Sequence record: SRR22947725_802
Reading direction: 5' to 3' (one strand)
Length of the DNA stretch: 41,334 nucleotides
The position numbers were made by a program, and so were the translations under genes. The first letter of the stretch is position 1. Each line of letters opens with the position of its first letter. Of the stretch, positions 874 to 18,984 are shown piece by piece. Under the pieces are notes generated by a model that had not been told where the DNA came from, ran no database searches, and saw only the letters and a list, made by a program, of their open reading frames with translations.

Positions 874-2200
874 TTTTTGTAGCCTTCATGTAATTTATTG
901 CGTTAATTGGCTTTCCGCCAAGTCTTATTTCATAATGTAGATGCACTCCAGTGCTTCTACCCGAGTTCCCCATAGATCCAATTTTTTCACCCTGTAATAC
1001 TTTTTGGCCCTTTTTCACGTTAATTTTGTGCAAATGAGCGTAGTAAGTGATAAAACCTTGACTATGTCGAATTTTAATCAAGCGGCCATAACCGCCATTG
1101 TTACCTGCGAATATAACAACACCATCTCCAGTGGCAACTATTTTCGTACCTAATGGGGCAGCTAAATCAGTACCGTTATGCATCCTGCGTTTGCCATTTA
1201 CTGGATCCTTACGGTATCCAAATCCACTTGTGTATCTGTGTGATCCTGCAACAGGATGACCTAATGGAACTTTAGAAATTGCTAACTTTAATAAACTTAC
1301 TTCATCCAGATCTCTAAGTACCTTTGACGCACGTTCTGACATGTGATCGTGTAATACGCTTTCTGAGGAAGTTTCTATTGGCGTAATGGCACCCCCAGTT
1401 CCAGAATAACCTCTTCTTACCTCATTGACTAAAGATTTTGTATTTATACCTTTTTTATTCAGTACTTTAGAAAGAGGAGCTAATGCTATATCAACAGCTT
1501 CTTCTAATCTGTTAAATATTTGGTTGCCTCGCTCTTGAAGTAGAGCAGTATCTAACTCAAGCGTTTCCACTTGAGTTTCCATTGTTCTTGTCTCTTTGTA
1601 AAGTTTATCTCGTTCAGAAGACGTTCTTACTAGGGCGTTTGATAAAAACGCAAGTGTATCTTTGTTATCTGTAGATTTTCCAAATTCTGAATTAATTTCA
1701 TTTGAAACTGTTCTGAATTTATTTTGTAAATTATTTGCTATCTCAATTGCATTATCACGAGACTTTATTGCATCCTGTAGCTTACGCTGCATTATGTTTA
1801 AACCTTTGCCAAGTTCGCGCCGTTGTTCTTCTAATTCTAAAAGCTCAGATTGCTGGATAGAAACCTGCTCAAGTGCAATGTAAAAACGTTCTAATGATGT
1901 TTGTGCTTCTAATGATCGTTTATTTCGCTCATTGGATAACTGTTCAAGGCGGCTTTCATATGCTTGTTGCAATACGCCAGCTTGTTCCTTGTCTGTTTTT
2001 GCTGAAATTGCTTGAACTGCAAGCATTACTGTTGCTATCACCATCCAACAAAATAACAATGCAAATGTAGTTCCTGCAAAAGTTTGAATAATTGGGGTTA
2101 ATCGAACATACCTTGCGGTTTTATCTGATCGCAAATATATTCTTTGCTCAGGAATCCTATTGCTTAAAAAACTATTTATAGTTGCAAAATTTATTGGCAT
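863..2200 (-). CDS. Membrane-anchored coiled-coil M23 family metallopeptidase (LmdC-like)
   Basis: N-terminal TM segment, long coiled coil, C-terminal M23 domain with HNGTD (HxxxD), YAHL and STGVHLHYE (HxH). Overlaps the bactofilin gene by 11 bp. Confidence 0.92.
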   Translation of the reverse strand: MPINFATINSFLSNRIPEQRIYLRSDKTARYVRLTPIIQTFAGTTFALLFCWMVIATVMLAVQAISAKTDKEQAGVLQQAYESRLEQLSNERNKRSLEAQTSLERFYIALEQVSIQQSELLELEEQRRELGKGLNIMQRKLQDAIKSRDNAIEIANNLQNKFRTVSNEINSEFGKSTDNKDTLAFLSNALVRTSSERDKLYKETRTMETQVETLELDTALLQERGNQIFNRLEEAVDIALAPLSKVLNKKGINTKSLVNEVRRGYSGTGGAITPIETSSESVLHDHMSERASKVLRDLDEVSLLKLAISKVPLGHPVAGSHRYTSGFGYRKDPVNGKRRMHNGTDLAAPLGTKIVATGDGVVIFAGNNGGYGRLIKIRHSQGFITYYAHLHKINVKKGQKVLQGEKIGSMGNSGRSTGVHLHYEIRLGGKPINAINYMKATKNVF

Positions 2201-2337
2201 TCAATGTTTCTTCCAATTATGAAATAATTATATGTTATTCATTAAGATTAATTATGCTGTTACTCAATGAATTTTACCAAATGATTTGTTTTAGTTTTTT
2301 AAAAGCCTGAAAATAAGCAAATTATTGCCAATTTCAT

Positions 2338-3141
2338 TCAACTAATTGCAATTGGCCAATAAAAGTCTAATGGAATTCCAGCTTCGGCTCGCTTTTCATC
2401 ATTAAAAGGTGGTTTTAAACTACTTTTAAAATATTTACTTACCAATTCATGAAACACAATCTTGGGATCCTTATTATGTCTTCCACATAAAAAGTGAAAC
2501 CATTTAGATCCAAATGCAACATGACCTACTTCCTCAGCATATATTAACTCCAAAGTTTTTACAGTTTCATTATCATTTATTTTTTCAAAAAGTTTTATCA
2601 TACCTGGTGTTACGTCTAAACCTCTTGCTTCAAGGACCATTGGAACTATAGCAAGTCTTCCTAGAAAATCTTCTGATGTTTCTTCTGCAGAACTCCACAT
2701 TCCAGCATGAGCAGGCAAATCTCCATAGTATGACCCCATTGCTTCTAAGCGTTCGCACAATAAACTAAAATGTTTACTTTCTTCTTGAGCAGCCTTTACC
2801 CAATCGTCATAATAACCATTTGGCATTTCTACATCTGCAAACCTTGCTATTATATCCCAATGTAAATCAACTGCATTCAATTCAATATGTGCTATTGCAT
2901 GTAAGAGTGCTATCCGACCTTTTTCAGTGCCATACTTACGCTTAGGCATATTTCTTGGTGGTAACAATAAAGGATTTTTTGGACGGGAGGGTTGAGATGG
3001 AGGTTTTGTATTCCCTATTTCTAGTCTTTGATCAGACATATTCGACGCAAACCATTTGTCTGAATAGTCCTTTGATTTAAGTACTTTTAAGTGAGGATCG
3101 GATGTAGTTAAAATATCAACAGCCATTTGTGTAAGGGTCAT
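2338..3141 (-). CDS. Ferritin-like DUF455 family protein
   Basis: LLHAIAHIELNAVDL, EESKHF, LEARGLD and EEVGHV di-iron-type ExxH motifs. Confidence 0.88.
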   Translation of the reverse strand: MTLTQMAVDILTTSDPHLKVLKSKDYSDKWFASNMSDQRLEIGNTKPPSQPSRPKNPLLLPPRNMPKRKYGTEKGRIALLHAIAHIELNAVDLHWDIIARFADVEMPNGYYDDWVKAAQEESKHFSLLCERLEAMGSYYGDLPAHAGMWSSAEETSEDFLGRLAIVPMVLEARGLDVTPGMIKLFEKINDNETVKTLELIYAEEVGHVAFGSKWFHFLCGRHNKDPKIVFHELVSKYFKSSLKPPFNDEKRAEAGIPLDFYWPIAIS

Positions 3142-15061: not shown

Positions 15062-16012
15062 ATGCGTGACTTAAATATCCCATCAGAACGTCATCCAGAA
15101 AAAGCAAATAAGCCTGACAATGCTCAACCTAGCAAGCCATCATGGATCCGTGTTAAGGCACCAATTTCCGACGGTTATAAAAAAACACGTGATATTATGC
15201 GTGAAAATAAATTAGTCACTGTTTGTGAAGAGGCTGGGTGTCCAAATGTTGGTGAATGTTGGTCTCAAGGGCATGCAACAATGATGATCATGGGTGAGGT
15301 CTGTACTAGAGCTTGCACATTTTGCAACATAGCTACAGGCAAGCCACCAGAAGATTTAGATGTATTTGAACCTGGAAGAGTTGCAGATGCAGTTAAAAAG
15401 CTTGGATTAAAACATGTTGTTATTACATCTGTAGATCGTGATGACGTTCAAGATGGTGGTGCCGAACACTTTGCGCAAACAATACGTGCTGTTAGAAAAC
15501 AATCACCCGATACTACGATTGAAATTCTTACCCCAGATTTTATTAGGTGTGATGATAATGTTTTAAAAGTCGTGGTTGATGCAAAACCAGATGTTTTTAA
15601 TCATAATTTAGAAACAGTACCTGGCTTATACCCAGAAGTAAGGCCTGGCGCGCGCTATTTCCATTCATTAAGACTGTTGCAACGTGTGAAAGAAATAGAT
15701 CCTACAATGTTTACTAAGTCAGGTATTATGGTTGGCCTGGGTGAAAATAAACAATCAGTAGTTCAAGTTATGGATGACATGCGAGCAGCTGATATTGATT
15801 TCCTTACAATTGGCCAATATCTGCAACCCACACCAAAACATCATGCTGTTGATAGATTTGTTACTCCTGATGAATTTCAGATTTATGAAAAAACTGCTTA
15901 TAATAAAGGTTTTTTAATGGTTTCTGCCACGCCATTAACTCGCTCAAGTTATCATGCTGGCGATGACTTTTTAAGACTTAGACACGCAAGAATGTCAAAA
16001 TTTGGTAAATAA
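15062..16012 (+). CDS. lipA: Lipoyl synthase
   Basis: [12 protein letters not shown] auxiliary-cluster motif, CTRACTFC radical SAM motif, RSSYHA. Confidence 0.98.
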
Positions 16013-16054
16013 TTATGGCTTGGTAGAGTTGATGTACTACACAAGCCAATTATT
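16008..16054. terminator. Probable bidirectional terminator between convergent lipA and helicase genes
   Basis: TGGCTTG-GTAG...CTAC-A-CAAGCCA stem with flanking AATAAT/ATTATT. Confidence 0.55.
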
Positions 16055-16062
16055 ATTGCTGT

Positions 16063-17658
16063 TTATCTACGAGGGGATTTGTTTCCGCCACCTCTAAATG
16101 GTTTTTTACCAGACTTAGAATTATTCCTACTATTATTATCACGAGGTCCTGAGCCCCTTTTTGAATTTGCACCACCACCACGTCTTCGTGGTGCGGGCTT
16201 TTCAAAGTTTGGAATTAAATTTTGGGTGAGACCTTCCATTTCAACAACTGGAATATCCATTTTGATAACTTTTTCAATATCCCATAATTGTTTATGTTCA
16301 TCGGGGGCGCAGAATGCAATTGCTTTTCCATCAGCGCCAGCTCGTGCTGTACGTCCAATTCGATGAACGTAAGATTCTGGTACATTGGGTAAATCAAAAT
16401 TAATAACAATTTCTATACCTGGAATATCTATGCCTCGTGCCGCTATATCTGTTGCGATAAGTATATAAGTTTTACCTTTTTTGAAATCATCCAGTGCTCT
16501 TTGTCTTTGACCTTGTGATTTATTACCATGAATTGCATCAGCGCCAATATTTTGTGTTCCTAACCATTTTACTAATTTATCAGAGCCATGCTTGGTTCGG
16601 GAAAATACAATAACGCGTTTTTTAGGATTTGCAGATATAATTCTTTGTAATGCCAAGCCTTTGTTTTGTTTAGATAAATGCATTAAGCTCTGCTCAATTT
16701 TATCTACTGTGGAATTTTCTGGTGTAACAGACACTTGAACAGGATCGGTTAAATAAGTTTCTGTTAGTTTTTTAATTTCCTTTGACATTGTAGCAGAAAA
16801 TAAGAGTGTCTGACGGTCTTTATTAACTTTTGATATAATGCGCTTAACCGCAGGCAGAAAGCCTATATCAAGCATTTGATCAGCTTCATCTAAAACTAAA
16901 AATTTTGTTTCATCTAATCGCAATCCCTTTTGATCAACAAGATCTTCAAGTCTTCCAGGAGTTGCTACTAAAATATCAACACCTTTAGACAGATCACGCA
17001 TTTGTTTTCTAATAGGAGCGCCACCAATCGCATGGGTAAAGTTTAGTGGTAATCTTTTTCCAAAGCTCACAAATGCTTCATGAATCTGTAGTGCTAATTC
17101 ACGCGTAGGTGAAAGAATTATAGCTCTTGCTGAACGACCCTTTATTGCTATTGGATTCATTAATAATTGTTGAATTAATGGTAATGCAAATGCAGCTGTT
17201 TTACCTGTACCCGTTTGAGCTAGCCCAACTAAATCTTTGCTGTTTAAAACTGCTGGAATTGCCTGAGATTGGATCGGAGTTGGTAATGTATATCCTAGAA
17301 AACCCAATGCTTTAACTATTTCTGCATCTAGGCCTAATTTTGAAAATGCACTTGCATCAGATTTAGGTTGCTCTACCCGCTGTTTTTTCTTTTCATCACG
17401 GTTTTTTGGTTTTGACGACGAGGAAGTTAATAATGAAGCTTCGTCTTTTTTAAGTATAGTTACGTTTGATGCTGCTTTTTTTCCAGTTTTTTCATCAAGT
17501 AATAACTCGTAAGTTAGCATGTCACCTTCTTTGACAACTTTTAGGCCTGAAGCTTTAAGGGCTGACATATGTACAAAAACATCATCGCCCCCTTGATCAG
17601 GGTTTATAAAACCTAAACCTTTTACAGGATTATACCAAATTACTGTGCCTGTTAGCAT
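16063..17658 (-). CDS. Cold-shock domain fused to RhlE-like DEAD-box RNA helicase
   Basis: aa 1-~69 CSD (GTVIWYN, KGLGFI, VFVH); helicase motifs PTPIQ, AQTGTGKT, PTRELA, TPGRL, DEAD, SAT, ARGID, HRIGRTAR; R/G/K/N-rich tail. Confidence 0.93.
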   Translation of the reverse strand: MLTGTVIWYNPVKGLGFINPDQGGDDVFVHMSALKASGLKVVKEGDMLTYELLLDEKTGKKAASNVTILKKDEASLLTSSSSKPKNRDEKKKQRVEQPKSDASAFSKLGLDAEIVKALGFLGYTLPTPIQSQAIPAVLNSKDLVGLAQTGTGKTAAFALPLIQQLLMNPIAIKGRSARAIILSPTRELALQIHEAFVSFGKRLPLNFTHAIGGAPIRKQMRDLSKGVDILVATPGRLEDLVDQKGLRLDETKFLVLDEADQMLDIGFLPAVKRIISKVNKDRQTLLFSATMSKEIKKLTETYLTDPVQVSVTPENSTVDKIEQSLMHLSKQNKGLALQRIISANPKKRVIVFSRTKHGSDKLVKWLGTQNIGADAIHGNKSQGQRQRALDDFKKGKTYILIATDIAARGIDIPGIEIVINFDLPNVPESYVHRIGRTARAGADGKAIAFCAPDEHKQLWDIEKVIKMDIPVVEMEGLTQNLIPNFEKPAPRRRGGGANSKRGSGPRDNNSRNNSKSGKKPFRGGGNKSPRR

Positions 17659-17820
17659 GTTTGTATTCGCTCTCTAGATTTATGCCTGTATGCCATACGG
17701 CGCTAATACAGACTATTGTTGGCTAAAACCTAGGGATCCAGTATTGCGAATCGCCGTCAAATGTTTATACACCTGGCCAGCCGAAGTTGATCTAATAGGT
17801 GACGTAGGCGATGAAAACAA
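17659..17820 (-). promoter_or_regulatory. Putative promoter and structured 5' leader of the CSD-helicase gene
   Basis: Minus strand TTGTTT(17820-17815)-N17-TATTAG(17797-17792), then a ~130-nt, relatively GC-rich leader with several pairable stems. Confidence 0.5.
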
Positions 17821-17870
17821 GCGTGTTTATCAAATGATTTTTAGAACTTGATTTTGAATTTGTTGGTTAA

Positions 17871-18407
17871 TTATTTAAAGACAACTTTTCCAATGTGATC
17901 TAAATTTCTATTTCTTTGGGCATAATCAATCCCATAGCCAACAACAAATTCATCAGGGATCTCAAACCCAATCCAATCAGCTTTTATTTCTACTTCTCGT
18001 CTCGCGGGTTTGTCTAAGAGTGCACACACCTTTAACCTAGCTGGCTTTCTAGATTCTAATAATGTCTTTACATGATGTAATGTATGGCCTGTGTCTACTA
18101 TATCTTCGATAACTAAAACATCTCGACCTTCAATTTCACCCCTCAAATCTTTTAAGATCCTGACTTCACGAGAACTTTCAGTAGAATTTCCATACGAAGA
18201 AGTTTCCAAAAAATCGACTTCGCATGGTAAATCTAATTCTCTTGCTAAATCTGCAATAAAAACAAATGATCCTCGTAATAGACCAACAACAATAAGTTTA
18301 TCTGTATTTTTGAAATATAGAGATATATCCTCGGCAAGTTCTTCACATCTTGCAGCAATTGATTTTGCTGAAATCATTGTTTCGACATTATAATTTGAAT
18401 GATCCAT
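17871..18407 (-). CDS. hpt: Hypoxanthine phosphoribosyltransferase
   Basis: [24 protein letters not shown] (PRPP loop), [17 protein letters not shown] 18407 preferred over GTG 18419. Confidence 0.96.
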
Positions 18408-18444
18408 TACTGCTTTCACTTGAAAATTTAATAAATATAAAAAA

Positions 18445-18473
18445 ATTTTAGTTTATTAACTCTTTTGCATCAA
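18445..18473 (-). promoter_or_regulatory. Putative sigma70 promoter of hpt
   Basis: Minus strand TTGATG-N17-TAAAAT. Confidence 0.45.
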
Positions 18474-18540
18474 TGAAAAAATTTACTCAAATATATACTT
18501 TCTTAATGACGAATGATTTTAATTTAAATAGAACAAGATT

Positions 18541-18984
18541 ATGCCAACACATACAGAAAAACGTATTATGCCCTACACTGCAAAACAGATGTATGATCTT
18601 GTTGCAGACGTTGAGACTTATCCTGATTTTTTACCTTGGTGTGCAGCAACAAGAATAAGAAAAGTGACAAAAGATAGTCATAAAACTATAATTGAAGCAG
18701 ACTTAATTATTGCCTTTAAGGTTTTTCGAGAGCGTTTTGGATCTAGAGTAACGCTAAAGGCTGAGAAATTTTCAATAGATGTAGAGTACCTAGATGGGCC
18801 ATTTAAATATTTAAATAATCATTGGATCTTTCGAGATGTTGATGGCGGGTGTGAAGCAGATTTTTTTGTTGATTTTGAATTTAAGTCAAGGGTCTTACAG
18901 GCACTCATAGGCGTTGTTTTTAATGAGGCAATGCAAAGAATTGTAAAGGCATTTGAAATGCGAGCTGATGATTTATATAAATAA
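18541..18984 (+). CDS. Coq10/RatA(PasT)-like START-domain protein
   Basis: QMYDLVADVETYPDFLPWC, GPFKYLNNHW, FVDFEF, AFEMRADDLY. Confidence 0.9.
   Translation: MPTHTEKRIMPYTAKQMYDLVADVETYPDFLPWCAATRIRKVTKDSHKTIIEADLIIAFKVFRERFGSRVTLKAEKFSIDVEYLDGPFKYLNNHWIFRDVDGGCEADFFVDFEFKSRVLQALIGVVFNEAMQRIVKAFEMRADDLYK

Follow-up and report, generated by a model that had tools for sequence, protein, structure and literature searches.

The window analyzed here, a stretch of 41,334 nucleotides (nt) from sequence record SRR22947725_802, encodes on its minus strand (16063..17658) a 531-amino-acid (aa) protein in which a cold-shock domain (CSD), a disordered linker, a complete RhlE-like DEAD-box helicase core, and a basic disordered tail follow one another, from the N- to the C-terminus, in a single open reading frame (ORF) of 531 codons. 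DEAD-box cores unwind RNA locally and non-processively and need appended RNA-binding modules to capture their substrates; CSDs bind single-stranded RNA (ssRNA) with low specificity and prevent it from refolding. Given these known properties of both families, the CSD is most likely a tethered ssRNA anchor and/or strand trap, and a probability of about 0.6 is assigned to the reading that the fused protein would be a functional RNA remodeler working in this way.

Architecture of the Fused Protein

The two enzymatic and the one accessory module are recognized by Pfam well above the respective cut-offs: CSD (PF00313) at residues 3-67 (58.7 bits; cut-off 27), DEAD (PF00270) at residues 127-297 (165.6 bits; cut-off 26), and Helicase_C (PF00271) at residues 336-441 (114.7 bits; cut-off 23.5). 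With both RecA-like domains above the gathering thresholds, the protein is a DEAD-box helicase of superfamily 2 (SF2). A preliminary description, made from the letters of the window alone, had placed a cold-shock domain in the first ~69 codons; the Pfam match bears this out, and the motifs that it quoted (GTVIWYN, KGLGFI, VFVH, and KKAASNV) are present in the translation together with the linker string. An AlphaFold 2 (AF2) model made from 23 family sequences (mean predicted local distance difference test score, pLDDT, 73.2; predicted template modeling score, pTM, 0.48) completes the picture of a CSD: a match above the gathering threshold is accompanied by a five-stranded β-barrel (strands 2-10, 15-20, 27-30, 47-54, and 61-68; block-mean pLDDT 75-85). 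A short helix, conserved in part of the family, follows directly at residues 71-78.

The linker is disordered in the model (pLDDT below 50 at residues 79-99). In-frame ATG, GTG, or TTG triplets occur within codons 1-140 only at positions 1, 31, 47, and 118, so the linker has no start codon; it has no stop codon either, and the helicase thus lacks a start of its own, in line with the preliminary description. Across 23 family members, the linker measures 27-36 aa, carries a net charge between -1 and +7, and averages 0.36 in identity to the window protein, compared with 0.78 for the core. The linker's sequence changes quickly (proportion of nonsynonymous differences, pN, 0.17-0.19), yet its length is kept. 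It ends in a conserved P-K-S-D-A-S-A-F junction just before the Q-motif region, in which D101, A102, A104, and F105 are invariant in the 23 members.

DEAD-box proteins share a well-known set of motifs: Q, I (AxTGoGKT), Ia (PTRELA), II (DEAD), III (SAT), V (ARGID), and VI (HRIGRTGR). The translation reads F105...GYTLPTPIQ, AQTGTGKT, PTRELA, DEAD, SAT, ARGID, and HRIGRTAR, all invariant in the 23 members; with full Pfam matches to both helicase domains, the intact RhlE-like core of the preliminary description is there. How close is it to RhlE proper? The best NCBIfam models over residues 104-516 are RhlE2 (NF053710; 443.2 bits, cut-off 925) and RhlE (NF007882; 442.5 bits, cut-off 743), with RhlE1 (NF053711) at 419.7 bits for a cut-off of 750; because these scores fall far below all three equivalog cut-offs, the core is RhlE-like rather than a certified RhlE. 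It is well folded in the AF2 model and, in Foldseek, aligns over ~370-380 columns with RNA-bound DEAD-box cores, Vasa (2db3) at a root-mean-square deviation (rmsd) of 3.2 and DbpA (7pli) at 3.6; no solved chain spanning a CSD and a core is among the Foldseek matches. Pfam finds no RNA-binding domain of the DbpA type (RBD; PF03880) in the fused protein at E ≤ 0.01.

Basic disordered C-terminal tails are typical of RhlE proteins, and the one expected here is readily found: pLDDT is below 50 at residues 483-531, and the last 51 residues hold 15 K/R vs. 2 D/E (net charge +13). Across the family, the tail is 35-72 aa long with a net charge of +11 to +16.

A Working Gene Under Purifying Selection

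In a word-indexed search, residues 1-140 matched 32 proteins, and 29 of these carry both CSD and DEAD. The preliminary description would have been undone by a stop or frameshift in the linker of close relatives; instead, the junction is in frame in 26 related protein clusters, which are 48-100% identical to the window protein over 99-100% of residues 1-140. Full-length family members are 514-560 aa long, and the cluster identical to the window protein comprises 527 member sequences. Named relatives include an “RNA helicase” of Amylibacter marinus and proteins of Paramylibacter kogurei, Amylibacter sp. SFDW26, and a Rhodobacterales metagenome-assembled genome (MAG), each filed as “DEAD/DEAH box helicase.” The nearest genome (G001; 2.3 Mb, 99% complete), on which, together with genome samples, all genome-level statements here are based, encodes an identical protein in gene DNA that is 99.6% identical; related genomes do not count as independent observations.

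The ratio of nonsynonymous to synonymous substitution rates (dN/dS), estimated by the Nei-Gojobori method against two orthologues of ~90% protein identity, is 0.032 and 0.037 in the CSD (dS 0.91 and 0.79), which indicates purifying selection; it is 0.013 and 0.016 in the core, where dS is saturated, and 0.13 and 0.11 in the tail. At least 0.91 of the gene's sampled words are present in 19 public runs from 18 studies (marine, seawater, estuary), six of the runs being metatranscriptomes. Contigs were obtained from four RNA runs of four studies: in three, a single contig covers all 1808 nt, and in the fourth, two pieces leave 13 nt near the 3' end uncovered. These contigs contain no indels and no joints, also across the junction (17340-17460) at which the preliminary description had proposed to map reads, and none of their five substitutions lies in the linker. 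The substitutions (16093, 16120, 16531, 16582, and 16597) are identical in three of the four RNA studies, the fourth having four of them and no cover of 16120; shared in this way, they suggest that a common population variant differs from the window at these positions.

Might two adjacent genes have been merged through an error of assembly or sequencing, or might the gene be in decay? The identical protein in the nearest complete genome and the 26 in-frame relatives, the contigs of four independent RNA studies without an indel, the dN/dS far below 1 in both CSD and core, and the intact helicase motifs all speak against it. The fused gene is a working gene for a single polypeptide, and, in practice, both artefact and pseudogene can be excluded.

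Origin Within One Genus

Among 301 Rhodobacteraceae genomes representing 300 genera, only the window's genus, with two genomes in the set, gives a match spanning residues 1-165 (E 1.9e-104 and 6.2e-63); in all remaining genomes the best E-value is 2.7e-20 or weaker, from the CSD or the helicase part alone, and the fusion was thus not found in the 299 other genera among the best 150 of 1602 match rows. An apparent fused match in another family (L107; tblastn, 4-466) proved to be an alignment artefact, its ORF having no CSD.

The genus itself is divided. Among 16 genomes of the window's GTDB genus, six carry the fused gene, with 100, 91, and 90% identity in genomes of 2.0-2.4 Mb and 65% in genomes of 3.0-3.4 Mb. 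Seven carry an unfused orthologue without CSD or linker and with a core 56-58% identical to that of the window protein: six are full-length (L092-L097), reside at another locus, and come from larger genomes (3.5-4.9 Mb), and one is cut by a contig end. Neither form was found in the remaining three genomes, two of which are only 72% and 84% complete, and the two forms are mutually exclusive (together in 0 of 16 genomes). A maximum-likelihood tree of the cores (48 rows, 385 columns; a quick search with support from the Shimodaira-Hasegawa-like approximate likelihood ratio test, SH-aLRT, only) groups 14 fused cores together (SH-aLRT 100) and gives them the six unfused same-genus orthologues (99) as sister clade (92). 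Judged from the cores, the fusion arose once, within one GTDB genus of Rhodobacteraceae in which Amylibacter and Paramylibacter are the named relatives.

The start of the unfused proteins (M-K-E-N-x-V-x-F-T-D-L-G-L) lies ~5 residues ahead of the conserved Phe that precedes the Q motif; for this reason, the CSD and the linker were added to an otherwise complete N-terminus. All six fused genes are convergent with lipA; the unfused orthologues have another locus, at a distance from lipA of 35 kb in one closed genome and 150 kb in a second, and a rearrangement thus accompanied the fusion. But where did the CSD come from? A merger of neighboring genes is not supported: the 1.5 kb upstream of each of the six unfused orthologues hold no csp gene, and none adjoins lipA in four genomes with an unfused orthologue or in a genome with neither form (G316). 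A donor csp could not be identified in a 70-column CSD tree, in which the branch is long and the resolution weak.

Recurrent Fusions and a Gene Pair

The same combination has been made elsewhere. When 1.84 billion representatives were searched with residues 1-165, most of what came back were multi-CSD proteins; seven N-terminal and two C-terminal CSD-helicase fusions were confirmed among the candidates checked, counts that are no census. A genome-contig search with the same residues was swamped by matches to AQTGTGKT and gave a CSD-to-core span at one of 80 loci (L007, 3001..3429, an Anaerolineae MAG). This locus belongs to an Anaerolineae-type N-fused group (L007, P0028, P0029, and P0080) that forms a core clade of its own (SH-aLRT 99), and the core of another N-fused protein, P0027, pairs with an unfused protein (SH-aLRT 100). 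Forcing all 19 N-fused cores, a group named after the tree was seen, into a single clade costs 136.7 log-likelihood units and is rejected (approximately unbiased test, p-AU 2.7e-8). At the opposite end of the core, C-terminal CSD fusions to RhlE-like helicases (P0058, P0067) make up 18 clusters, with named members from Devosiaceae and Hyphomicrobiales MAGs. The CSD and the helicase have thus been joined independently at least three times in N-terminal and at least twice in C-terminal position.

The Anaerolineae-type family, with proteins of ~460-530 aa, is itself large: 113 of the best 120 relatives listed for P0029 residues 1-135 carry CSD and DEAD, and its named members come from Anaerolineae/Anaerolineales, Lokiarchaeota, Promethearchaeota, and Sigynarchaeota MAGs. 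These Anaerolineae/Asgard proteins (P0029, P0080, L007) share the order CSD, linker, DEAD, Helicase_C with the window protein and are 35-39% identical to it over the N-terminal region; they differ in having the canonical KW and GFGF motifs, shorter linkers, and mostly no long basic tail.

The two families also meet as neighbors. In a genome of the window's own genus (G316, locus L103), an RhlE-like gene (1396..2829, 477 aa) is followed on the same strand, 55 nt apart, by a gene (2885..3094) for a 69-aa cold-shock protein (CSP), which at 54% identity matches the fused CSD better than any other stand-alone CSP does. The helicase core encoded there groups (SH-aLRT 99) with the C-terminal CSD fusions P0058/P0182, and by this placement the L103 pair and the P0058-type protein look like a gene pair and its fused counterpart. 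The pair and the C-terminal fusions bring together the same two families as the window protein, likewise in alphaproteobacteria, but the fusions do so in the opposite order and the cores belong to other clades. Recurrent fusions at both ends of the core and the helicase-csp pair suggest a functional coupling of CSDs and RhlE-type cores; repeated fusion in both orientations plus an adjacent gene pair is “Rosetta-stone” evidence for action on the same RNA molecules.

The preliminary description had allowed that the architecture might already sit in databases, and it does: an N-terminal CSD followed by DEAD and Helicase_C is not new to them, having been deposited many times under generic names, as “DEAD/DEAH box helicase” or “RhlE.” Two of the proteins met along the way are of separate interest. 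P0027 (727 aa) has ~180 extra N-terminal residues that start with a hydrophobic, signal-like stretch, and its CSD, like those of the window's family, has an Ile in place of the Lys that precedes the Trp; the shared Ile could reflect convergence, or the gene start could have been mis-called. P0075 (442 aa) contains two CSDs, then an AAA ATPase and an AAA-lid, and is another combination of CSDs with an NTPase.

What Would the Cold-Shock Domain Do?

In the proposed mechanism, the CSD would be a flexibly tethered, low-specificity ssRNA-binding module, in the role that a DbpA-type RBD or basic tails have elsewhere. It would (i) anchor the non-processive core beside structured RNA and/or (ii) capture the strand freed by local unwinding and block its re-annealing, a division of labor that can be called “unwind and hold.” The basic tail would provide a second, non-specific RNA contact. 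The greatest benefit would be expected in the cold, during ribosome assembly, in translation, or in mRNA decay linked to the degradosome. A bolder version is doubtful: fusions of CSD and DEAD-box core would then form a general RNA-chaperone machine of two steps that has evolved repeatedly, in which the core opens a duplex locally and the covalently tethered CSD, re-tuned by the Lys-to-Ile/Leu and aromatic-to-aliphatic exchanges on its binding face, traps or hands over the freed strand, lending the non-processive enzyme effective directionality or persistence.

Is the CSD still a canonical ssRNA binder? W8, K13, G14, G16, F17, F28, and H30 are invariant in the 23 family members, whose CSDs have a mean identity of 0.68 to that of the window protein. 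The preliminary description had called the domain CspA-like. RNP2 (V-F-V-H) is retained, whereas one aromatic of RNP1 and the Lys that precedes the Trp are gone, and on its sequence the fused CSD is not simply a CspA copy. It scores below the curated NCBIfam cut-offs for CspA/CspE-type proteins of ~70 aa (NF007679, 54.2 vs. 130; NF049933, 60.2 vs. 120), and in the 70-column CSD tree, likewise a quick search, the fused CSDs form one group (SH-aLRT 93) separate from all stand-alone CSPs.

Several observations count against a tethered anchor or strand trap. Where 22 of 22 stand-alone CSPs of the genus have VKWFN and KG[F/Y]GFI, the fused CSDs have V[I/L]WY[N/D] and, in RNP1, KG[L/I/M]GF; both altered positions face the nucleic acid on the canonical binding face, and the changes are conserved across the 23 members. 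Since RNP1 is defined as [YF]-G-F-I (the Prosite motif, as given in the available portion of PMC7825780) and the window protein reads L-G-F-I, the first RNP1 aromatic is lost. The Pfam score of the window's CSD (58.7 bits) is below those of the other fused CSDs (69-81 bits), and the stem branch of the fused CSDs is long (0.38, in a 70-column tree of weak resolution); together, the altered face and the long stem suggest that the RNA affinity or the role of the fused CSD may have changed. The pTM of only 0.48 makes the AF2 model uninformative on the arrangement of the domains. As regards induction in the cold, the RNA-library contigs tell nothing of level, strand, or the ends of transcripts, and some DNA may be present in RNA libraries.

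The changed binding face is what one would expect had the CSD been re-purposed, either to dock the helicase on a partner (the ribosome, RNase E and the degradosome, or a specific RNA) or to regulate the core in cis. The exchange of Lys for Ile/Leu before the Trp and of an aromatic for an aliphatic residue in RNP1, kept in all 23 members while the 22 stand-alone CSPs are canonical, the long stem branch, and the short helix after the CSD in part of the family would all fit this explanation, as would the behavior of Caulobacter RhlE, the nearest characterized alphaproteobacterial relative, which is induced by cold and, at low temperature, associates with the degradosome (PMC5472812, in the part of the article at hand). 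A complex prediction of the core (residues 100-480) with the CSD (residues 1-70) returned a score of 0.00, which is no answer and speaks neither for nor against docking. However, W8, F17, F28, and H30 are invariant, leaving most of the aromatic platform intact; a disordered, variable linker suits a tether better than a fixed docking geometry; and the independent Anaerolineae/Asgard-type fusions retain the canonical motifs. A re-purposed CSD is unlikely on this evidence. Alternatively, the gain may have been one of expression: through the fusion, a csp-type promoter, leader, and N-terminal coding region would have come to precede the helicase, making it cold-inducible or subject to control by mRNA structure, with the biochemistry of the CSD secondary. 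The ~165-nt leader of the fused gene is as conserved as its coding sequence (CDS; 79-80% vs. 78% identity) and mildly structured (the fold of 17640-17870, minus strand, is somewhat better than shuffles, z = -2.08); the gene sits by lipA, away from the locus of the unfused orthologues, with the rearrangement that this implies; and induction of C. crescentus rhlE is mainly post-transcriptional (same portion of PMC5472812). Yet the leader resembles, by blastn, neither the region upstream of the genome's csp gene nor the other loci compared, and Rfam has no match to it (none in the whole window at the gathering threshold, none in 17550-17950 at E ≤ 1); moreover, expression signals alone would not explain a dN/dS of ~0.03 in the CSD or independent fusions in both orientations, which makes such a capture quite unlikely.

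Gene fusions are common in streamlined genomes, and an accidental join of csp and helicase might have been fixed in a small-genome lineage with the parts working independently and no synergy between them. The window's subclade is indeed reduced: its fused genomes of 2.0-2.4 Mb have 1-2 stand-alone CSP genes, and a search of the three found no two-CSD protein, while five fusion-free genomes searched (2.8-4.9 Mb) have 2-4 CSPs and a two-CSD protein. But the fused genomes of 3.0-3.4 Mb keep three CSPs and the two-CSD protein; for this reason, CSP loss appears to track genome reduction rather than the fusion itself, and the fusion would predate the reduction. Nor would a near-neutral join readily account for a combination made independently at least three times N-terminally and at least twice C-terminally, for a linker held to 27-36 aa, or for changes in the binding-face residues of the CSD after the fusion; it is very unlikely. 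The tethered ssRNA anchor or strand trap is preferred over these explanations, with the qualification that its altered binding face allows for a re-purposed CSD and the conserved leader for a regulatory component.

Relation to Known Systems

Cooperation between CSPs and DEAD-box helicases on misfolded RNA has long been proposed, and direct evidence for it is thin. B. subtilis CshB/CshA and CspB have the same two activities on separate polypeptides, unlike the window protein, which joins them covalently at 1:1 and has a modified CSD face; CshB colocalizes with CspB, by fluorescence resonance energy transfer (FRET), during active transcription in B. subtilis (Hunger 2006, as cited in the available text of PMC1484253), and Arabidopsis AtRH7 interacts with AtCSP3 (PMC4846089, from the accessible part).

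The window protein is not a new kind of machine: it is a DEAD-box helicase with an accessory RNA-binding domain. It shares the logic of helicases with the DbpA/YxiN RBD (PF03880) and of DeaD/CsdA helicases, in which an appended domain ties a non-processive core to RNA; the appended domain of the DbpA type is C-terminal and resembles an RNA recognition motif (RRM), whereas that of the window protein is an N-terminal CSD with an oligonucleotide/oligosaccharide-binding (OB) fold. RhlE-type helicases (E. coli RhlE, P. aeruginosa RhlE1 and RhlE2, and C. crescentus RhlE) have, like the window protein, a complete core and a basic disordered tail, and provide its best NCBIfam matches, yet far below the equivalog cut-offs. 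To our knowledge, no characterized RhlE protein has an N-terminal CSD. In RhlE proteins, the C-terminal intrinsically disordered regions (IDRs) set the specificity of function (PMC11260450, in the portion available).

A 2011 survey of 1,848 bacterial DEAD-box proteins sought Pfam domains at C-termini only and found the DbpA RBD alone (PMC3093544, as far as the accessible text goes), and a 2021 review of CSDs contains neither “helicase” nor “DEAD” (PMC7825780). No description of a CSD-DEAD-box fusion, in any family, was found in the literature searched, a scope outside which most subscription journals lie; within the portions available, none is given in PMC3093544, PMC11260450, PMC12787238, PMC7825780, PMC1484253, or PMC5472812. 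On whether the architecture was already known, a point on which the preliminary description had been guarded, there are two answers: many entries in databases and no description in the papers found.

The interest of the fusion lies mainly in its recurrence, in the presence of fused and unfused forms in sister species, and in the abundance of the organism, which is plentiful in marine metagenomes and metatranscriptomes. The lineage is useful in that the fusion is recent, lies within one genus, and leaves sister species whose unfused orthologues can serve as natural controls; in practice, it offers a compact, testable system in which to ask how an accessory single-strand binder alters a non-processive helicase. 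If the two-step machine were real, the genus would be a natural experiment in which cooperation of CSP and helicase is directly measurable, and the fusion might have a part in the success of this marine lineage, which is very abundant and has a reduced genome.

Locus and Cellular Context

The fused gene (GC content 36.7%, vs. 34.7% for the window) and the leader that precedes it are laid out in Table 1.

Table 1. Parts of the fused gene and its leader, in window coordinates.
Feature	Coordinates	Strand	Basis
Cold-shock domain, residues 1-69	17452..17658	-	Pfam CSD 3-67; RNP1 KGLGFI, RNP2 VFVH
Short helix 71-78 and disordered Lys/Ser/Glu-rich linker, residues 70-100	17359..17451	-	pLDDT, family comparison
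DEAD-box helicase core, residues 101-480 (Q motif to RecA2)	16219..17358	-	Pfam, NCBIfam, Foldseek, motifs
Pfam DEAD domain	16768..17280	-	Pfam
Pfam Helicase_C domain	16336..16653	-	Pfam
Arg/Gly/Lys-rich basic disordered C-terminal tail, residues 481-531, and stop codon	16063..16218	-	pLDDT, charge
Conserved upstream leader between hpt and the fused gene, candidate 5' untranslated region (UTR) or regulatory region	17664..17829	-	alignment to orthologous loci, fold

The identity values of the leader come from two orthologous loci (L087, L088) that encode proteins ~90% identical to that of the window; the first ~40-65 nt after hpt do not align between orthologous loci. A scan of 15900-18600 for promoter and terminator consensus sequences found eight, as against a shuffle mean of 9.4. 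From its conservation, the leader is a possible regulatory 5' UTR. The neighbors of the fused gene are housekeeping genes, encoding a KatG-like peroxidase, lipoyl synthase, a phosphoribosyltransferase, an SRPBCC protein, and an ammonium transporter.

The two-CSD protein of the genus is an open frame of 173-204 aa with two weak CSD matches, present in genomes G303, G304, G306, G310, G311, G315, and G316. The DEAD-box set of the nearest genome, G001, numbers four: the CSD fusion; a plain RhlE-like paralogue (42% identity) from another core clade, in which Pfam finds no further domain; a DbpA-like protein, which has the DbpA RBD; and a 671-aa DeaD-like protein with a DbpA domain. Three of the four thus carry a folded accessory module, a CSD in one and a DbpA RBD in two.

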